64,000 nucleotides of DNA from an uncultured Candidatus Saccharibacteria bacterium (GTDB lineage Bacteria > Patescibacteriota > UBA1384 > XYA2-FULL-43-10): contig CAYRRY010000001.1 of the NCBI GenBank assembly GCA_964426805.1, forward strand, positions 2,504 to 66,503, written 5' to 3'. The position numbers and the translations under genes are program-made. Shown here in pieces: positions 4,089 through 63,124 of the stretch. Under the pieces are notes generated by a model. That model saw nothing but the letters and a program-made list of their open reading frames with translations, searched no databases and was not told the origin of the DNA. Numbering within the stretch: position 1 is the stretch's first letter; each line of letters begins with the position of its first letter.

Positions 4089-4089
4089 A

Positions 4090-4640
4090 TTAAGTTTGTA
4101 CGACGCGGGAAGTTGCCCTCCCGCGTCGCTTCGGATCCCGTGATTTGCTGAAAAGAATTGCTATCAGTAAATCACGGTCGTTGTCTGGCCGTCAGCTCAC
4201 CAGCGTAGAGGCCTGGCTCAGACAACTGTTTGCCCCGTGAGGAGTGGGGCACGACCGCGGTTGCCTCATGCGCTGGCTGTTGCCGCACGAATCAGCAACT
4301 TCTTCTGCGTCGCACCCATAGGGTGTCTCTCCCTTCTTGGGTATGTGAGGGGCGTTTGCCACTCACTATCACTGTGGAGATGTTCTCGACAAGTTAAAAC
4401 TATCATAAATCTGTCTCGACATCAACACACAACAAATAAAAAAAGACTCACCTAGAGTCTGAAAATAATAACAATTTAGAGGGGGGCGCGTCGGGTAACG
4501 CGCCCCCCTGCAGCTCAAGCAGATTGACAGCACCTAGATAGTGATTTATCCCTTGCGGGGCCACGCTATTCTAGCGCCATCATTGTGTCCGCCTATTCAC
4601 CACCTTTCGGTGGCGGACTATGTAAGAATATACCCTATTG
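4090..4640. ncRNA. GC-rich, highly structured non-coding island; candidate structured RNA(s) of unknown class
   Basis: No credible ORF. Perfect helices include CGACGCGGGA/TCCCGCGTCG (4101-4128), CCGTGATTT/AAATCACGG, GGGGGGCGCG/CGCGCCCCCC (4481-4508) and CCACC-GAAA-GGTGG, a GNRA-type tetraloop nested in GTCCGCC/GGCGGAC. A minus-strand intrinsic terminator follows at 4434-4460. Confidence 0.35.
4434..4460 (-). terminator. intrinsic terminator on minus strand (hairpin AGACTC-TAGGTG-AGTCT followed by TTTTTTTATTT)
   Basis: Read on the minus strand: agactctaggtgagtctttttttatttg. Confidence 0.6.
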
Positions 4641-4644
4641 CTGT

Positions 4645-5202
4645 CTATTTTTCAATTGCTTTATATAGTATTATTCCCGCGGATGTTGCAACGTTTAGAG
4701 AGTTGGCCACGCCGTGCATCGGGATATCAACATAAGCATCGCACAGCGCAAGAGCGCCATCTCCTATCCCCTCTACTTCATTTCCCACAACTATGGCTAT
4801 TGGTTTCTTATATTTAAATTTATTGTAATCGATACTTTCGTCGGTTTGCTCTAGAGCGACCACCGACACATTCTTTTTCTTTAGTTTTTCTATCACATCA
4901 ATTGTATTTTCAAAATATTTGTAAGGTACATGTTCGATAGTCTGAAGAGCAGTTTTTTCTAGATCAGGTCTTGGCGGATGCGCAGTGATTCCACAGAGAA
5001 ATATTTTCTTAACTCTTGCAGCATCGGCTGTTCGAAACATGGCTCCCACATTGTGAACAGAGCGAATATTATCCAAAATCAAATAAACCTCATGGCGAGG
5101 TTTATTTTTGAGGATTTGTAAGTCCCCTTTTCTTTTAATCAATTCTTCAGTATTAAGTTTTTTCATAGTTCCAAGTTCTTTATTCTTAATTCTGCAAAAC
5201 AT
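4645..5202 (-). CDS. SpoU/TrmH-family RNA 2'-O-methyltransferase (likely start at internal Met ~5166)
   Basis: SPOUT motifs: NVGAMFRTADA, VVGNEVEGI and the C-terminal LNVATSAGIILY. Confidence 0.8.
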   Translation of the reverse strand: MFCRIKNKELGTMKKLNTEELIKRKGDLQILKNKPRHEVYLILDNIRSVHNVGAMFRTADAARVKKIFLCGITAHPPRPDLEKTALQTIEHVPYKYFENTIDVIEKLKKKNVSVVALEQTDESIDYNKFKYKKPIAIVVGNEVEGIGDGALALCDAYVDIPMHGVANSLNVATSAGIILYKAIEK

Positions 5203-9772: not shown

Positions 9773-12275
9773 TTGCTTTTACCAATTTTATCTTGTTTTT
9801 TGTTAATTCCACTAAAACATTGTCCCCTTTTTTGAACTTCTCGTCAAGAATTCCTTCAGCTAGAGGCGCCTCTATATTCTCCGTTATTACTCTTCTCATC
9901 GGTCTTGCACCGTACTCTGGCTTGAAGCCATTTTCGGCTATTTTATCCTTAGCCTTGGTAGATATCTTTATTCGAATCTTCATCTCCCTTATTCTGGAAA
10001 CTAGCTTTGCCACTTCAACATCTACTATTTTTCGGATAGCTTTTTTGTCTAGCGGTTTGAAGATGATAGTTCTGTCAATCCGGTTTAAAAATTCCGGCTT
10101 AAAGTGTTTCTCTATTTTGTCCATTACATTCTCTTTGAGCTTTTCATATTCATCCTGAGCCTTGTTCCCCTTGTCACTTCCCATAAATCCAATCTTAGCA
10201 CCACGAGTAAGGGTATCGGTGCCGAGGTTTGAGGTCATAACAACAAGAGTATTTCTAAAATCGACTCGTCTGCCCTTGGCATCTGTTAGCTCTCCATCTT
10301 CAAAAATCTGCAGCAAAATATTGAACACTTCCGGATGAGCTTTTTCAATTTCGTCTAGCAAGATCAGGGAGTATGGTTGCTTTCTTATTTTCTCGGTCAA
10401 TTTGCCGCCCTCTTCGTAACCTATATAGCCAGCAGGTGCTCCAACTAAACGGGAAACATTGTGTTTCTCCATAAACTCCGACATATCAATTTTGATTAGA
10501 GCATCGTCTTTACCGAAAACTTCTCGGGCCAAAACTTTGACCAGCTCAGTTTTTCCAACTCCAGTAGGACCTAGGAAAATGAATGAGCCAATCGGTCTTT
10601 TGGGGTCAGATATGCCGACGCGAGAGCGTCTTATGGCTTTTGCAATCTCTTCCACTGCTTCATCTTGTCCGATTATATGTTTGGTTATTCTTTTCTCTAG
10701 ATCCATAAACATTCTCTTCTCGGACAAAGTAAGGTTTGTAACTGGTATTCCTGCCCACTTAGAAACAACTTCGGCTATCTCTTCTTCATCTATTTTGCTT
10801 TTTTTATCAAGCGAACTCTTCTTTTCAAGTTTTAAAATATTTTCTCTTAATTTTAACTCTGCCTGTCGAAGTCTAGAAGCATTTTCATATTTTTCATTGA
10901 TCACGGCTTCATCTTTCTCGTTCGAAATTATTGATAATTTACGAGTTATCTTTGAGAGCTCTCTGGCTTCTGGTGTGATAACATTTGTCGCAGCAGCAGC
11001 CTCGTCGATTAGATCGATTGCTTTGTCTGGCAGAAACCTGTCTTGAATATATCTATGAGAGAGCTTTACGGCAGCTTTAAGTGATTCCGGCGTGTACTTT
11101 ACTTTGTGGTGTTGTTCATACTTCTTCTTAATTCCCTTCAAAATCTTTAGCGTCTCTTCTTCGTCAGTTTCATTTACAACAACTGGTTGAAATCTGCGCT
11201 CGAAAGCAGCATCTTTCTCAATATGTTTTTTGAACTCGTCAAATGTTGTGGCGCCCAAAACTTGTATTTCGCCTCTTGCCAAGGGTGGTTTCAGTATATT
11301 CGCAGCGTCCATCGATCCCTCGGCGGAGCCGGTGCCAATTACGGTGTGAATTTCATCGATAAAAAGAAGGATATTTCCTTTCTTTTTGATCTCAGAAATT
11401 ATCTTTTTGATTCGTGATTCAAATTGACCGCGATACATGGTGCCAGCCAAAAGAGAGCCCATGTCTAGCGACAAGACCTCCTTGTTGGCGATTTTTGTAG
11501 GCACTTCCCCTTCAACTATTCTAGACGCCAGTCCTTCAATAATTGCGGTTTTACCAACTCCAGGTTCTCCAATCAGGATAGGATTGTTTTTCTTTCTTCG
11601 CGATAAAATCTGTGTAATTCTGTCAATTTCAACATCTCGCCCGATTACTGGGTCAAGTTTTTTAGTCCTTGCCTGATTAGTGATATTTACAGTAAATGCT
11701 TTTAGCGCAGATTTTTCCTTGGTTTTGGTGGTTTGCATCTGCATCCCAGGTGGTGGCCCCATCGGACCGAAAGAAGCATCAGCCCCAGGCATCTCCATCT
11801 GCTCTAAGTTTGGTGCCTGCATTGCTTCTTTCGATTTGTTTATCTCAGAAAAAACAGACTCAATCTGAGTTTTTATCTCAACGGGGTTGATACCGATACG
11901 TTCAATTATGCTATATGAGTTAAATGTTTTGTTGGAAACTAGCGCCAAAAGTAGATGTTCAGCGTCGACTGTTCTGTGTTTGAACTTAGCAGCAAACTGG
12001 ACGCCAAGTTGTGTTGCGGCTTTGGCGTCTTTCGACATGCCGTTCGGAGCAGAACGGGCTACTCGCTTGCTAACAAGCCCAGCAACCAGGTGTGCTTGGT
12101 CTTCAGAAACTCGATAAACCGAGAGTATATCGTTAGCCAGTGTTCCCTTAATCATTAGAAGCGCCAAAAAAAGATGCTCAGTATCTATGATACTGTTTTG
12201 TTCTTTGGCAATCCTTTCAGCGGTCATCAAAACTTTCTGTAAGTTTGGACTAAATTTTCCAAATACATTTTTCAC
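9723..12275 (-). CDS. clpC: AAA+ chaperone ClpC-type (Clp ATPase with short M-domain and IGF ClpP-docking loop)
   Basis: Two Clp-N repeats. Two AAA modules (GEPGVGKT; GPTGVGKT). Middle domain is only ~60 aa. IGF tripeptide in AAA-2 (AKIGFMG). The 3' end overlaps the ABC ATPase start by 50 nt. Confidence 0.85.
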
Positions 12276-23419: not shown

Positions 23420-24154
23420 CTATCTCTTATAGAATTCTTCGGCTACTATTATCAATCTATTTAGTGCAGTGCCGACCGGTGTGCAAGTCATGAGGCTTAG
23501 AATCCTTTTATCTTCTTGATCGAGCACTGAAAGATCGTTTGGTTTTACGCTCTTTTTCTCAACTACGCTGTAACCGTAAATCACATTATTGAAATTTATA
23601 TATATTTTATCCCCCACTACCAATTTATCGAGTAGCACAAAAGCTTCTTTATATTTACCGTTTGACCAAAAATAGTCGGAAGAGTGACCGGTAATAAATA
23701 CATTGCCCCCTTCTCCCGGCTTTGCTGTGCCATGCAGGTGTATGACACCGTTTTTTAGGTTGCTCTCTGTTTCTGTTGGGGTGTTTGGGACATCCCACAC
23801 TATGGGGGCCTGAACATCTATCTTTTCGATCACGATTGCACCATTTGGAACGGCTGGCACATTTATAATATCATCTGTAGAGTTATGCGATTGGTTTGTT
23901 CCAGAGCCTATAAGTGGCGAATTATCGACTTCCTCTGTTGTTATATTTTCCTTATACCAAAAGTCAAACCTTTTTTTAAAGGTTCCGAAGTTTATGAGCG
24001 CAAATATTATTGAGAATCCAATCACTAAATACAAAACGTAGAGAAAATATCGAAGAACTTTGCGCCCCCCGGTTTCTGTATTAGTTCCATATAAATTTTG
24101 GAGATCTTTTTCTTTGAATTTCATAATTTGGTGCCAGAGGTGGGAGTCTGTCAC
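23420..24154 (-). CDS. sortase-family transpeptidase (likely true start at Met ~24124)
   Basis: TM anchor, ITGHS (His), LSLMTCTP (TLxTC Cys) and a downstream Arg. The extreme N-terminus of the track ORF runs into a tRNA-derived repeat. Confidence 0.75.
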   Translation of the reverse strand: MTDSHLWHQIMKFKEKDLQNLYGTNTETGGRKVLRYFLYVLYLVIGFSIIFALINFGTFKKRFDFWYKENITTEEVDNSPLIGSGTNQSHNSTDDIINVPAVPNGAIVIEKIDVQAPIVWDVPNTPTETESNLKNGVIHLHGTAKPGEGGNVFITGHSSDYFWSNGKYKEAFVLLDKLVVGDKIYINFNNVIYGYSVVEKKSVKPNDLSVLDQEDKRILSLMTCTPVGTALNRLIIVAEEFYKR

Positions 24155-24253
24155 TGGTCAAATTCTGTCGAATTTGCCATCGACCCCGTCTCCCCCGACA
24201 TTTCGGGGTCCGACATTCAACTCTTCTTTAATTTGGTGCCAGAGGTGGGAGTC
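24128..24253. repeat. two tandem 21-24-bp copies of the tRNA-Leu 3' end (TTGGTGCCAGAGGTGGGAGTC) at 24128-24148 and 24233-24253
   Basis: Exact 21-mer matches to tRNA-Leu positions 24336-24356. Copy spacing is 105 and 103 bp. Confidence 0.8.
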
Positions 24254-24336
24254 GTCTACAAATATTTTTCTGTTGAAAAATTTCGCAGACCCGCCTCGGC
24301 TCTCAGTCGAACCTGCGGCATTCTCCTCCATATTTT

Positions 24337-24423
24337 TTGGTGCCAGAGGTGGGAGTCGAACCCACATCACGCGAGCGTGATACGATTTTGAGTCGTACGC
24401 GTATACCAATTCCGCCACTCTGG
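24337..24423 (-). tRNA. tRNA-Leu (anticodon CAA), long variable arm, CCA encoded
   Basis: Hand-folded. Acceptor GCCAGAG/CTCTGGC. Anticodon stem TACGA/TCGTA with loop CTCAAAA. Variable arm CACGC..GCGTG. T-arm GTGGG-TTCGACT-CCCAC. Confidence 0.8.
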
Positions 24424-24534
24424 CTAAATATCAAATAATGTATGGTTAATAACTGATAATTAAGAAACGATGTATTATTGACAATTTCAGCTAAAATTAT
24501 AGCAAATTTTACGTTCTTTGGAAAGTGCTAATAT

Positions 24535-24571
24535 GCTAAAATTTTAAACGCCTCACTCGTGTGAGGCGTTT
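24535..24571. repeat. palindromic repeat copy A (AAACGCCTCAC-tcgt-GTGAGGCGTTT, extended to a 17-bp stem)
   Basis: Shares the core with copies at 56521, 60726 and 62396. Confidence 0.7.
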
Positions 24572-55770: not shown

Positions 55771-56445
55771 ATGCCGGATACTGACGTTGCATACGGCCTC
55801 AACGAGGCCGCAGCTCGAGCAACACGAAAGGGAAAGATCCCGTGGTCAGCTGAGGAACTCACCTTCTTCGAATGCCTCGTCTACCTACTCGCTGACAATT
55901 TCCCCTCGTTTGCCAGCGTGTCGTTTGTGGAGAGCGTGGCAAAGCAAGCATTCGCACGGGCTAGCGGCGCCGAAGAGATTCACGCGCTGGCACTCCTCGA
56001 TCGCGAAGGAAGCGTCATCGACAAGTACGTCACTGGGAAGACCAGAACGGATGCCTATATCAGAATGAGGTCGATTCTCACCGATCCGTTCGAGACAATG
56101 AACACAGTGGAGGAGTGCCGCGCGCAACTTCACCTCTGCAAACGCCTGGTCGACCACCCCAGCCTGTACAACGAGCATTACGAACGGCGAGTAGCGGAAC
56201 TCGTGCGACCGCAGCTATCCTCATGCCTCGGCACTAGCTCATTCCTCGGTATCATCGAGCAACTGCCGCCGAACCCAGTCACTATTCTTCCGGAACTCCT
56301 CGAGATCGCCGGCAGACTTTTCGCAGATGCTACTCCCGCGGAGAAAGCCATGATAGCTTGCGCCCTGGGCTACATCGGACTCCCGCCGGAGGGCTGTCCT
56401 GAGTGGATCCGGGAGTACCTGGCGGAGCACCCGCCCGATGCGTAA
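55771..56445 (+). CDS. hypothetical protein encoded by a visibly GC-rich segment (probable foreign origin)
   Basis: 224-aa ORF with Ala/Arg/Pro-rich composition atypical for the window. Followed by a GC hairpin at 56471-56499. Confidence 0.5.
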   Translation: MPDTDVAYGLNEAAARATRKGKIPWSAEELTFFECLVYLLADNFPSFASVSFVESVAKQAFARASGAEEIHALALLDREGSVIDKYVTGKTRTDAYIRMRSILTDPFETMNTVEECRAQLHLCKRLVDHPSLYNEHYERRVAELVRPQLSSCLGTSSFLGIIEQLPPNPVTILPELLEIAGRLFADATPAEKAMIACALGYIGLPPEGCPEWIREYLAEHPPDA

Positions 56446-56470: not shown

Positions 56471-56550
56471 AGACCACCTGGCATGCCAGGTGGTCTTTCT
56501 GCGTATAAATGGAGTATCTCTGCTAAACGCCTCACTCGTGTGAGCCGTAT
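56471..56550. repeat. 14-bp perfect palindrome AAGACCACCTGGCA/TGCCAGGTGGTCTT followed by palindromic repeat copy B (degenerate right arm)
   Basis: Read directly from sequence. Copy B is TGCTAAACGCCTCACTCGTGTGAGCCGTAT. Confidence 0.7.
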
Positions 56551-58009: not shown

Positions 58010-59830
58010 ATGTATGATTCTTCGAAAATTCGAAATATTGCCATCATCGCTCATGTTGATCACGGCAAAACAACACTTGTTGACGGACTTCTAAAACAGT
58101 CCGGTACTTTTCGCGATAACCAGCTAGAGATGAGCCAAACAACTATTCTGGATACCGGCGACTTGGAGAAAGAGCGTGGTATCACCATCTCTGCCAAGAT
58201 AGCTTCGGTAAAATACAAAGATTGTAAAATCAATATTATAGATACTCCCGGTCACGCAGATTTTTCAGGTGAAGTCGAGAGAACACTAAGCATGGCAGAC
58301 GGTGTTCTTCTTGTTGTAGATGCCCAGGAAGGCCCTATGCCGCAAACCAAGTTTGTACTGAGCCGAGCCCTAGCCCTGAACTTGAAACCGATAGTTATTA
58401 TAAACAAGATTGATAAAAAGGATGCACGGACTTTCGACGTTATAGGAGAAGTAGAGAACCTATTTTTAGACCTAGCCACTACAGACGATCAGCTAGATTT
58501 TCCTGTTTACTTTGCAGTTGGTCGCGAAGGTAAGGCTTTCGATGAAATACCAGAAGATATTTCTAACACAAAGGGCGACCTGTTGCCCATCTTCGATGCA
58601 ATCCTAAGTCACATACCTGCCCCTACTGCGAACATTGATGGAGAGTTCCAGATGCTGGTATCCGCCCTTGAGTGGGATTCTTTTAAAGGCAAGTACGCTG
58701 TCGGTAAAATTCAGCGTGGAAAAGTATCTAAAGGTGACACAGTATCCCTAATTAATAATGAAGGACTAATAACAGAATCAAATATTGAAAATATCTATAT
58801 TTCAGACGGACTAGAAAAAAACGAAGCATCGGTTGCTGGTGCAGGAGAGATTGTTCGCCTTACAGGTGTTCCAAATGCTAATATCGGCGAAACTATTACC
58901 TCATCCGAAAATCCTGAGCCGCTACCTCACATAGAAGTAGAAGCTCCCACACTACAAATCACCATAGGCCCAAACACTTCACCCTTTGCGGGACTTGAGG
59001 GAAAATTCACAACTTCAAGACAGATCGAAGCCCGTCTAAACAAAGAGCTAGAAACCAACGTTAGCCTTCGAGTTGAAAAAAAGGATACGACTTTTGTAGT
59101 TTCTGGCCGAGGAGAACTTCACCTCTCGATTCTAATCGAAACATTGCGTAGAGAAGGGTATGAGATGGAAGTTGGACGACCAACAGTTGTTACGAAATTT
59201 GAAGATAATGTTGAACTTGAGCCCGTTGAAGAGTTGACTATTGATGTTCCAGACGAATTTTGTGGAGCGATCAACAGTGAACTTGGCAACAGACGAGCGA
59301 TTTTAATTAATTCTGCAGTAACCACTGTAGGTTCAACTAGACTAACGTTTAAAATATCAACAAGAGCACTTTTAGGGCTTAGAAACGTTCTTCTGACCAG
59401 AACCAAGGGCACAGCAATTATGAATAGCTTACTTGTAGGATACGAGCCCATGGGAGATAAACTTCAGAAACTCAGAAACGGAGCGCTTATATCTGCCGAA
59501 AACGGAACAGCAGTCACATATGGGCTAAAGGTTGTAGAAGAACGCGGAACATCCTTTGTGGGCCCCGCCACACGTATATACGAAGGTATGATAGTAGGTT
59601 TAAACAGACGATCTGAGGATATGGAGATAAATGCTTGTAAAGAGAAACAGCTAACCAATGTTCGGGCCGCATCCAGCGACATCGCAACAGCGCTAGTGCC
59701 ATTTATTTCGCTATCCCTGGAGGAATCACTAGATTTTATAGAAGATGACGAGCTTTTAGAAGTTACTCCCGCATCGCTTCGTATGCGAAAAAGGCACCTA
59801 ACAGCTCTCAGTCGAAAAAAGAACAAATAA
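58010..59830 (+). CDS. typA: translational GTPase TypA/BipA
   Basis: AHVDHGKTTL, DTPGHADF, NKID and BipA-specific C-terminal domain. 606 aa. Confidence 0.92.
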   Translation: MYDSSKIRNIAIIAHVDHGKTTLVDGLLKQSGTFRDNQLEMSQTTILDTGDLEKERGITISAKIASVKYKDCKINIIDTPGHADFSGEVERTLSMADGVLLVVDAQEGPMPQTKFVLSRALALNLKPIVIINKIDKKDARTFDVIGEVENLFLDLATTDDQLDFPVYFAVGREGKAFDEIPEDISNTKGDLLPIFDAILSHIPAPTANIDGEFQMLVSALEWDSFKGKYAVGKIQRGKVSKGDTVSLINNEGLITESNIENIYISDGLEKNEASVAGAGEIVRLTGVPNANIGETITSSENPEPLPHIEVEAPTLQITIGPNTSPFAGLEGKFTTSRQIEARLNKELETNVSLRVEKKDTTFVVSGRGELHLSILIETLRREGYEMEVGRPTVVTKFEDNVELEPVEELTIDVPDEFCGAINSELGNRRAILINSAVTTVGSTRLTFKISTRALLGLRNVLLTRTKGTAIMNSLLVGYEPMGDKLQKLRNGALISAENGTAVTYGLKVVEERGTSFVGPATRIYEGMIVGLNRRSEDMEINACKEKQLTNVRAASSDIATALVPFISLSLEESLDFIEDDELLEVTPASLRMRKRHLTALSRKKNK

Positions 59831-59899: not shown

Positions 59900-60064
59900 T
59901 TAAGCTCGTTCGTGTTTTTCTACAAACCTCTTTATCGCATCGATGTTTTCTATCACCATCTTCGCTTTTTTAACACCAAACTGAAAAGGATATTTGTCTT
60001 CCTCATCATTTTTGATAACTATCATCGCGTTTCCCTTGAACTCTGATTCTTCTACAATCGCCAT
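59900..60064 (-). CDS. 54-aa hypothetical small protein
   Basis: Minus-strand ATG at 60064 with GGAGG 6 nt upstream. The leader shares a 19-bp stretch with the leader of ORF 60352..60669. Confidence 0.35.
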   Translation of the reverse strand: MAIVEESEFKGNAMIVIKNDEEDKYPFQFGVKKAKMVIENIDAIKRFVEKHERA

Positions 60065-60139
60065 TTTGCCTCCAAATTAAATATATAAAGATTATAACAA
60101 TTCTGCAGCTCCAGTGCCACTTTCTATTACTTCACGAGC

Positions 60140-60373
60140 CTACTGCATCGATATCCATTGGTTCATAGTGTCAACAGCATCTTGTTTCGCCACCATCAGC
60201 TCATTCCACTCTTGATCATCAAGCTCCCTGAGTCTCCGCTGCAATCTGTTTATCGTATCACTATCACGCGGGCTGATAATGTCACCCGTATGCCCACCCA
60301 ACTTATGCACCTTGTCTATTGTCGCTGTGGATTCTACATAAGGTTTTTTGTTCACGTCTTCTCGACCAGACAT
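60140..60373 (-). CDS. small hypothetical protein, paralog of 60352..60669
   Basis: Shared motifs VHKLGGHTGDIIS / VHQFGGRTRDIIS and EWNELMVAKQDA / EWDELMALKTDA. Confidence 0.45.
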   Translation of the reverse strand: MSGREDVNKKPYVESTATIDKVHKLGGHTGDIISPRDSDTINRLQRRLRELDDQEWNELMVAKQDAVDTMNQWISMQ

Positions 60374-60669
60374 TTTTTCTTGTAACCAAGCCCCCCCATT
60401 CTTTCATTAGCATCAGTTTTTAATGCCATGAGTTCATCCCACTCAGCGTTGTCCAGGTTGCTTCTAAATCTGCCTACGCTTTCTTGTAGCTTATTAATTC
60501 TAGCAAGACTTTCTTGGCTAATAATATCCCTAGTTCGTCCTCCAAATTGATGCACTCGTTTAGCCATTTCAGAGGAACTAACGTATTCCGCTATTTTATC
60601 AGTGTTTCCATCTACTTCTTCTCTTTCGTCTTCCGCTGGATTATGCGAAGTCGGTCTTGCTTCCACCAT
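60352..60669 (-). CDS. small hypothetical protein, paralog of 60140..60373
   Basis: As above. GGAGG RBS. Confidence 0.45.
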   Translation of the reverse strand: MVEARPTSHNPAEDEREEVDGNTDKIAEYVSSSEMAKRVHQFGGRTRDIISQESLARINKLQESVGRFRSNLDNAEWDELMALKTDANERMGGLGYKKKCLVEKT

Positions 60670-60725
60670 AGTTCCTCCAAATTAAATATATAGAAATTAT
60701 ATCATCTTTTGATTTATTTTCATAT

Positions 60726-60758
60726 TTGCTAAACGCCTCATACGAGTGAGGCGTTTAG
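60726..60758. repeat. palindromic repeat copy C (TTGCTAAACGCCTCA-tacgag-TGAGGCGTTTAG)
   Basis: Near-identical to copy D. A second GC hairpin CGGCCTCGC-atgag-GCGAGGCCG lies at 60808-60830. Confidence 0.75.
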
Positions 60759-62221: not shown

Positions 62222-62395
62222 GCAATTCGCTCTCCTTTTTGGATGTAAAAGTGCAAAGTTCACTTCTCACTGTTAATATAACAGCTATTCAGGTTAAAGT
62301 AATCTTTTTGTTCCAAATTAAACAATATAAAAAAATACCCGCGTAGACAGGCATGTAATAGCAAAACAATTTAGGCTAACCCAATAATTTCGAAC

Positions 62396-62428
62396 TTGCT
62401 AAACGCCTCATGCGAGTGAGGCGTTTGG
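62396..62428. repeat. palindromic repeat copy D (TTGCTAAACGCCTCA-tgcgag-TGAGGCGTTTGG), direct orientation relative to copy C
   Basis: Read directly from sequence. Confidence 0.75.
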
Positions 62429-62439
62429 CGACAAGACAA

Positions 62440-63040
62440 AAAAAACACCGAGCTATATGCAATGTGTATTTTTTTATACTATATAATCAATCCTCTTTTG
62501 CTCCATAAAAACAACACAGGCCCGACGACTGTCGAGACCTGCTAGTAGTGTGCATTCCCCAATTGAGGAGTGCTGTATTATTGCGAGGCGTAGTGAAACC
62601 GCCCAGTCCACCGTAGTGCAGTAGTACATACTGCTGCCGTAAGTGGCATGTCTTTGCGCGGGTTTTTCCTGAGGCGCCAGGGCGACTTACGGTGCCCTAG
62701 CCTGCGTCGATATGCGCGCGTGACTGAGTGCGCGAAGTGTCATGATACCACCTCCAGCAAACGAGATGTGCTCGCGCTAGGCCTTGATACAGTGGAGCGG
62801 AACTTCTGAGGGTTCGAACAACTGGGTTGGTTGACGTCACGAGTCCCGGAGTCCAGGAGGTGGATCGGACAGGGGCCAAAGATGGGTACATCTTGCGCGA
62901 TGGAGCGCGGTGTTTATGTATTGTCATGCTTTTACCGCTCAGCATGACTCGGAAAGCCTCGCCTCCTTAAATGCATCGCCAACAATTATGCTCATGTTCA
63001 ATATTTAGTATACTCTAAACATTTTCGATGTCAACAATAA
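62440..63040. ncRNA. GC-rich, non-coding, highly structured region; candidate large structured RNA of unknown class
   Basis: No credible ORF. Local hairpins GCAGTA-gtaca-TACTGC, CGCGC..GCGCG and CATGCT..AGCATG. Long-range complementarity CCGTAAGT/ACTTACGG and CCACCTCC (62748)/GGAGGTGG (62866). Ends at a terminator-like hairpin. Confidence 0.3.
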
Positions 63041-63043
63041 AAA

Positions 63044-63075
63044 AACACCCATTCACGTTAGGTGTTTTTTTAAAA
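63044..63075. terminator. bidirectional intrinsic-terminator-like hairpin (A-tract, AACACC..GGTGTT, TTTTTTT)
   Basis: aaaaaacacccattcacgttaggtgttttttt. Confidence 0.5.
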
Positions 63076-63124
63076 AATATATACAATCTTCTACGTGTAA
63101 AGTGTTACTATAATATATCTATTC

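Follow-up and report, generated by a model that had tools for sequence, protein, structure and literature searches.

Between a purF-like gene and a DUF2779 gene in the 64-kb stretch of Saccharibacteria DNA analysed here (hereafter the window) lies a gene-free island of elevated G+C content, and the question raised by this locus is whether the island encodes a large structured RNA, as a first-pass annotation of the letters had suggested, or has some other origin. The reading favoured here, to which I assign a probability of roughly one half, is that the island is an orphan ~0.5-kb non-coding insert in a variable slot, probably transcribed and without demonstrated function.

The gap between the start of the purF-like gene (62221) and the stop of the DUF2779 gene (63125) measures 903 bp and contains a core that stands out by its composition. 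The core and the two hairpins on either side of it are as follows:

62510 to 62975, no strand: GC-rich non-coding core, delimited by composition, the lack of a gene call, codon score and six-frame Pfam search
62398 to 62429, no strand: hairpin of repeat family D1 (copy D), -18.1 kcal/mol, z -5.96
63038 to 63072, no strand: bidirectional terminator hairpin TAAAAAAACACC...GGTGTTTTTTTA downstream of the DUF2779 gene, which is also the right copy of a flanking module, -14.2 kcal/mol, z -3.98

The core spans 466 bp with 55.6% G+C. In windows of 200 nt, the G+C content ranges from 0.55 to 0.59 between ~62500 and ~63000, while it is 0.26-0.43 in the immediate flanks and 0.398 in the window as a whole, and the borders are sharp. 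The first-pass annotation had described an island of ~600 bp, and the island is indeed present but shorter, since what remains of 62440-63075 outside the ~466-bp core is AT-rich flank. Its placement between repeat copy D (62385-62426) and the bidirectional terminator hairpin was accurate. The statement that it is much GC-richer than its coding neighbours is only partly correct, as the adjacent purF-like gene itself has a G+C content of 0.47-0.59. The tRNAs of the window have 56-60% G+C, the same level as the 56% of the island, and the public annotation of an identical contig calls no gene within it.

A candidate for a protein gene, intact or decayed, is the longest open reading frame of the island:

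62697 to 62945, minus strand: 82-codon ORF, the longest in the island, judged not to be a gene on account of its negative coding score

Some features of the frame would suit either the relic of a protein gene or a genuine small basic protein made from this ORF via the minus-strand promoter described below: the frame is interrupted by only 2 stops in 164 codons, where each of the other five has 5-7, it shares the strand of the promoter, and it opens with an AAGGAGG motif. This motif, however, is not a normal ribosome-binding site because at 16 nt upstream of the AUG it lies too far away, and the frame continues through the terminator hairpin. The G+C content at codon positions one, two and three is 0.53, 0.59 and 0.55, and is therefore highest at the second position, while the codon-usage score of the ORF is negative under both the native and the GC-rich codon model. 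Neither model gave a positive score in any frame of the island; real genes in the window score +0.22 to +0.25 in frame. Database searches pointed in the same direction: six-frame translations of the island had no match in Pfam, a concatenated six-frame query retrieved nothing at E ≤ 10 from 5.8 billion proteins, and tblastn produced noise only, both with the six-frame query against plasmids and with all ORFs of related loci against the gap. Among 1.84 billion protein representatives, the 82-codon ORF had no credible homolog, its sole match being a repetitive 1389-aa protein that aligned in 20 stretches, and gene callers passed it over. The island is thus non-coding and a protein gene, intact or decayed, is quite improbable; the first-pass annotation was right to see no plausible ORF here and to set aside the Arg/Ser-rich antisense ORF as an artefact.

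Known RNA families did not account for the island either. At gathering scores, Rfam 15 returned two tRNAs for the whole window and nothing else, and ARAGORN likewise found two tRNAs and no tmRNA. Relaxing the threshold to E ≤ 10, with queries of 1001 nt and 501 nt on both strands, yielded no match inside the island and no Rfam 15 family anywhere within 62500-63000. This includes the RNase P models RF00010/RF00011 and the tmRNA families (no island match at gathering score or at E ≤ 10), the SRP RNA and 6S RNA covariance models, group I and group II introns and, insofar as Rfam 15 includes them, ROOL, GOLLD, OLE, HEARO and raiA (all at E ≤ 10). The length of the island unit, ~495 nt, is in addition unlike that of 6S RNA. 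The Rfam scan, which had been put forward as a test of the structured-RNA proposal, gave it no support, with nothing in the island even at the permissive threshold.

In some CPR bacteria, the RNase P RNA has diverged so far that it falls below the standard Rfam score thresholds, and RNase P was searched for at 5 bits in the study that described this (PMC8172020). Because such RNAs can escape these thresholds, both strands were additionally scanned by regular expression for the RNase P motifs CR-I (GNAANNUCNGNG / GGAAAGUCC) and CR-V (ACNNNANNNNGNNUA / GGCUUA). CR-V was absent from both strands of the island and CR-I had no true match on the minus (promoter) strand; there was a single loose CR-I-like string on the plus strand, at the wrong end, and the other such strings had two mismatches. 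CR-I and CR-V are the universal regions of RNase P RNA (CR-I GGAAAGUCC; CR-V ACAGAA...GGCUUA) and together form the P4 helix, and no long-range helix of the P4 type was found in the island. Like the diverged CPR RNase P RNAs (PMC8172020), the island belongs to a CPR host, occupies a GC-rich gap of the size of an RNA gene and fails the Rfam gathering threshold, but unlike them it has no CR-V, no P4-type helix and no match to RF00010/RF00011 at E ≤ 10. The earlier remark that RNase P, tmRNA and SRP signatures are missing is borne out by Rfam at E ≤ 10, ARAGORN and the CR-I/CR-V scan. A CsrB-like sponge was also considered and rejected, as a hand count gave ~8 GGA motifs compared with ~7 expected, which is no enrichment.

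The folding of the island was compared with dinucleotide shuffles. For the whole island, the z-scores of the minimum free energy were -0.92 (plus) and -1.87 (minus), and windows of 120 nt had mean z-scores of -0.25 and -0.42, compared with 0.0 and -0.1 for the same windows in a composition-matched control, the purF-like coding sequence. The island is not distinguishable from this coding control and shows no excess stability. Many real structured RNAs fold little better than their shuffles, which softens this result. Two long-range complementarities had been quoted in support of a structure:

62637 to 62692, no strand: CCGTAAGT / ACTTACGG complementarity, with arms at 62637 and 62685; pair count within chance
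62748 to 62863, no strand: CCACCTCC / GGAGGTGG complementarity, with arms at 62748 and 62856; pair count within chance

Both of these, as well as the perfect hairpin, are present in the island, but they carry no structural signal since their number is within chance: three perfect 8-mer inverted repeats occur, the dinucleotide shuffles have 1.16 +/- 1.39, and a count of three is reached by 15% of them (p about 0.15). The arms of CCACCTCC / GGAGGTGG are spaced as described at ~110 nt (~108 nt from start to start), while those of CCGTAAGT / ACTTACGG have 40 nt between them instead of ~60 nt. Structured RNAs are usually G-rich and an excess of C over G is not typical of a folded RNA; on the minus strand, the core has 30.5% C compared with 25.1% G. 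The proposal of a large ornate RNA of the ROOL, GOLLD or OLE type, or of a degenerate ribozyme or intron, is therefore not upheld, there being no Rfam match, no folding excess and complementarity at the level of chance.

A different picture emerged for a second GC-rich gene-free gap in the window at 4089-4644 (556 bp, ~51% G+C and locally up to 0.57). Here, folding z-scores reached -5.1 for 4436-4622 and -6.0 for 4089-4440, both on the minus strand, and there are 13-bp perfect G+C hairpins, a promoter with 10 of 12 matches at 4655..4627 (-) and a terminator at 4460..4444 (-). Rfam at E ≤ 10 gave seven weak matches to this gap at chance level, none of which reached its family's gathering score, and the gap had no homolog in the 47 related loci described below. 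It is a much stronger candidate than the island for one or two novel structured RNAs.

What the island does possess, in addition to the features of the first-pass annotation, is a promoter and a terminator:

63007 to 63034, minus strand: sigma-70-type promoter TTGACA-16 nt-TATACT with 11 of 12 matches, predicted from sequence
62503 to 62541, minus strand: intrinsic terminator with an 11-bp G+C-rich stem and one bulge (62517-62541) followed by UGUUGUUUUUAU, -16.4 kcal/mol, z -2.45
62503 to 62999, minus strand: predicted transcript of ~495 nt, deduced from the promoter and terminator, with a presumed start near 62999 and its end at the U-tract of the terminator

Only two promoter sites with at least 11 of 12 matches exist on both strands of the 64-kb window (128 kb), and the other one lies 120 nt upstream of a DEAD-box helicase gene. 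Of the two hexamers of the island promoter, the -35 falls within the right-hand copy of the module and the -10 within sequence specific to the island; on the plus strand there is a -10 box only, with no match to a -35 hexamer. The predicted promoter and terminator thus bracket the island on one strand, as in an independent transcription unit, and the ends of the ~495-nt unit coincide with the rise in G+C. Since a near-consensus promoter and a terminator bracket the island, a discrete transcript is likely, and the island is probably transcribed on the minus strand as a C-rich RNA of ~495 nt.

These signals would suit a functional non-coding RNA gene confined to this lineage, ~495 nt long and read from the minus strand (the plus strand being less likely), that belongs to no described family and would act via its sequence, or via a fold that is hidden from single-sequence energy statistics. 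A strong promoter and terminator at the edges, the sharp rise of G+C to the level of tRNAs and the lack of coding potential would all fit such a gene, and the precedent of CPR RNase P RNAs that standard Rfam thresholds miss (PMC8172020) favours it as well. Against it stand the lack of an Rfam match at E ≤ 10, a folding z-score equal to that of the coding control whereas the 4089-4644 gap scores -5 to -6, an inverted-repeat count within chance, the preponderance of C over G on the promoter strand (30.5% vs 25.1%), and the failure to find a homolog in any search or in the same slot of relatives (see below). On balance, I consider such a gene unlikely.

OLE, GOLLD, ROOL, HEARO and raiA are large bacterial non-coding RNAs known from long GC-rich intergenic regions of AT-rich genomes, the setting of the GC-IGR/DIMPL approach (PMC6429828, PMC8723152). 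The island resembles these RNAs in its size of ~0.5 kb, its G+C excess over an AT-rich genome, its lack of an ORF, and its own promoter and terminator, but differs from them in that it has no covariance-model match, no homologs and no folding excess, and in that the predicted transcript strand is C-rich rather than G-rich.

Alternatively, the island might regulate the purF-like gene as a long 5' leader or attenuator, since it lies upstream of this gene on the same strand and its promoter is directed at it. Another three hairpins (-10.4, -18.1 and -8.5 kcal/mol), of which two are followed by U runs, lie between the ~495-nt unit and the purF-like start, such that four successive hairpins, three of them with U runs, separate the island from the start codon. 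A leader role is unlikely because these hairpins intervene; moreover, no riboswitch family matched, and the relatives of the purF-like gene keep ~100 nt of upstream homology but do so without the island. A leader is consequently very improbable, the least credible of the explanations weighed here.

The same relatives bear on how the island arrived. It had been suggested that the island is non-coding foreign DNA that was transferred together with purF. Foreign DNA remains the best fit, but the co-transfer is not borne out: the three known relatives match the purF-like unit at the DNA level only as far as ~62325-62338, the island is absent from all three loci, and the gene and the island are flanked by separate repeats, with D1 copies at 60715-60756 and 62385-62426 bracketing the gene. 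As the homology of the relatives stops before the island and they lack it, the purF-like gene and the island were not acquired as one block.

Several observations were made on the purF-like gene and its surroundings in their own right. It is a lone purF-like gene in a Saccharibacteria genome (60854-62221, minus strand), and its 455-aa product begins with MCGIAG and matches only GATase_6/7 in Pfam, without the phosphoribosyltransferase domain PF00156. Among 5.8 billion proteins, only three relatives were found at 54-61% identity, followed by true Nitrospirota PurF at 41%. One of the three, in locus L008, has SecY within a few kb and is directly followed downstream by a 900-nt block (11351-12250) with a G+C content of 0.61 in a genome of 0.41, in which two ORFs (115 and 132 aa) without Pfam match are called, but only one in the sister contig L010; this block has no similarity to the island. 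Between typA and the purF-like gene of the window (59900-60669, minus strand) there are three small ORFs of 54, 77 and 105 aa, none with a meaningful Pfam match. Read by eye, the 77- and 105-aa translations resemble paralogs of each other, and the 54- and 105-aa ORFs have in common a 39-nt upstream region that is 85% identical (repeat D5) and contains a -10 box and a ribosome-binding site.

Homologs of the island were sought in 47 related loci, comprising TypA relatives, the three purF-like relatives and 32 DUF2779 relatives from GTDB genomes. Neither nhmmer nor blastn found a homolog in these loci, which are syntenic via typA, the purF-like gene or DUF2779, and there was no DNA similarity to phages and plasmids. 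Larger collections were scanned using translations of the island as pseudo-proteins with six spaced 24-nt seeds per scan, an approach for which the seeds have to be conserved. These scans returned nothing from IMG/VR and the JGI metagenomes, where the host organism itself was also unmatched, suggesting that it is absent there. The only other copies of the island were 100% identical, namely the public contig and Logan SRR8862237 over 2506 nt. The missing homologs are suggestive but weak evidence, because the lineage is isolated and the scans need conserved 24-nt seeds: the nearest TypA (gene 58010-59830) is only 77% identical, and the named relatives belong to Saccharibacteria/Patescibacteria.

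The DUF2779 and typA genes are convergent, and the 3.3-kb gap between them holds the three small ORFs, the purF-like gene and the island. In six relatives (L024, L026-L029 and L039) the two genes are also neighbours, with gaps of 235-1366 nt. That of L024 is gene-free, that of L026 has an AT-rich ORF of 154 codons, and that of L027 has a GC-rich orphan ORF of 160 aa that is unrelated to the island; the content of the slot hence varies among relatives. As a side note, the L027 block (CAYMHI010000006.1, 7600-8150, Saccharibacteria) has a G+C content of 0.58-0.59 compared with 0.33-0.45 in its flanks, and carries the 160-aa ORF on the opposite strand; the block has no similarity to the island and the ORF no match in Pfam.

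The island is moreover flanked by repeats. The hairpin at 63038-63072 (pair I5) has 12 bp that are 100% complementary, and a degenerate version of its palindromic module, A7CACC...GGTGT7, is found on the left side:

62438 to 62478, no strand: hairpin module A7CACC...GTGT(A)T7 in its degenerate left copy, -10.4 kcal/mol

Both A7CACC modules sit within a ~65-nt repeat (62428-62492 and 63025-63088) that aligns locally with a score of 47, compared with 29 +/- 4 and a maximum of 40 in shuffles, although runs of A and T inflate this score. In the window, the 10-mer AAAAAACACC is present at four sites compared with 0.27 expected, and three of the four are at the flanks of the island. The island therefore combines the three marks of an insertion or horizontal transfer that were looked for: it is missing from the slot of relatives, has an atypical composition, and has flanking repeats. 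Around another GC-rich ORF of the window (55771-56445), flanking repeats were not significant. This plus-strand ORF encodes 224 aa without a Pfam match at a G+C content of 0.61, and of the two codon models only the GC-rich one gives it a positive in-frame score, which is partly circular as the ORF was in that model's training set; an orphan gene gained by horizontal transfer is the probable explanation.

The D1 family deserves mention separately from the A7CACC modules. Its copies (24530-24571, 56509-56550, 60715-60756 and 62385-62426) consist of a 26-nt near-perfect hairpin AAACGCCTCAnnCGnGTGAGGCGTTT of -18 kcal/mol with a conserved TTGCT lead, are REP-like or terminator-like, and one of them follows the GC-rich orphan ORF 55771-56445. 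A reading of D1 as integron attC sites was rejected by inspection, as the hairpins are too short (~32 nt) and the flanked units are oppositely oriented.

Repeats on both sides may also mean that the island is what is left of an element, either a small non-autonomous mobile one or one integrated site-specifically, that inserted at the DUF2779 terminator and either duplicated the module or carried it along. The two flanking modules are palindromic and can thus be read as direct as well as inverted repeats, TATACT-like boxes face inward at both ends (pair I4), the insertion adjoins an intrinsic terminator, and the three tRNA-Leu 3' ends described below would be a second apparent integration scar in the window. 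On the other hand, the island is a single copy in the 64-kb window with none in the collections searched, no frame contains a remnant of a transposase or integrase, no group II intron matched at E ≤ 10, and the repeat, besides being imperfect, contains many runs of A and T. ORF-less bacterial class C group II introns insert just after intrinsic terminators, and the island shares with them its nature as an ORF-less insertion of ~0.5-0.6 kb immediately past a terminator hairpin, as seen on the transcribed strand. It differs from these introns in that neither Intron_gpII nor any group-II domain matched at E ≤ 10 and that a 5' GUGYG is missing, and its CCGUAAGU/ACUUACGG helix encloses 40 nt, unlike the hairpin of group II domain V. 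A mobile element of this kind is a possible but doubtful explanation.

The tRNA-Leu repeats are situated at 24124-24424, where the 25-nt 3' end of tRNA-Leu(CAA) (TAATTTGGTGCCAGAGGTGGGAGTC) occurs three times with a spacing of ~105 nt, the last copy belonging to the intact tRNA-Leu(CAA) at 24338-24424 (-). They look like scars of repeated integration or partial duplications of the tRNA.

Taken together, an orphan insert accounts best for a non-coding island with no known RNA family and no structure signal that has flanking repeats and is absent from relatives in which the slot is variable. The host provides a plausible route, as Saccharibacteria are naturally competent and gaps between their convergent ORFs have served as neutral insertion sites (PMC10633639). 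In such a scenario, ~0.5 kb of non-coding DNA would have arrived as foreign DNA, for example by natural transformation, and inserted beside the DUF2779 terminator in the variable DUF2779-typA gap, which would have grown to 3.3 kb by separate additions of the small ORFs, the D1-bracketed purF-like gene and the A7CACC-bracketed island. Transcription of the minus strand would then start from the promoter at the junction and end at the island's own terminator, producing an RNA that would have no conserved structural or catalytic role.

Compared with acquired orphan DNA in competent bacteria, the island is alike in its atypical G+C, its absence from the slot of relatives, the variable content of that slot and its flanking repeats, but its very good promoter and terminator set it apart, as they would be unusual for inert DNA; it also encodes nothing. 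Several points weigh against the orphan-insert reading: a near-consensus promoter and a terminator at the G+C edges are what one would expect of a real small RNA gene, the 56% G+C matches the tRNAs of the window (56-60%), and long GC-rich gaps in AT-rich genomes are enriched in structured RNAs (PMC6429828, PMC8723152). Besides, no donor was identified, the score of the flanking repeats is raised by A/T runs, the missing homologs are weak evidence and real structured RNAs often fold little better than shuffles.

An orphan insert of atypical G+C in a variable slot of a competent bacterium with a reduced genome matters little as it stands, beyond the caution that a long GC-rich gap with a few perfect hairpins does not by itself amount to a structured RNA. 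If the island were a non-coding RNA gene after all, the Patescibacteria, whose RNA repertoire is poorly charted, would gain a large class of non-coding RNA.
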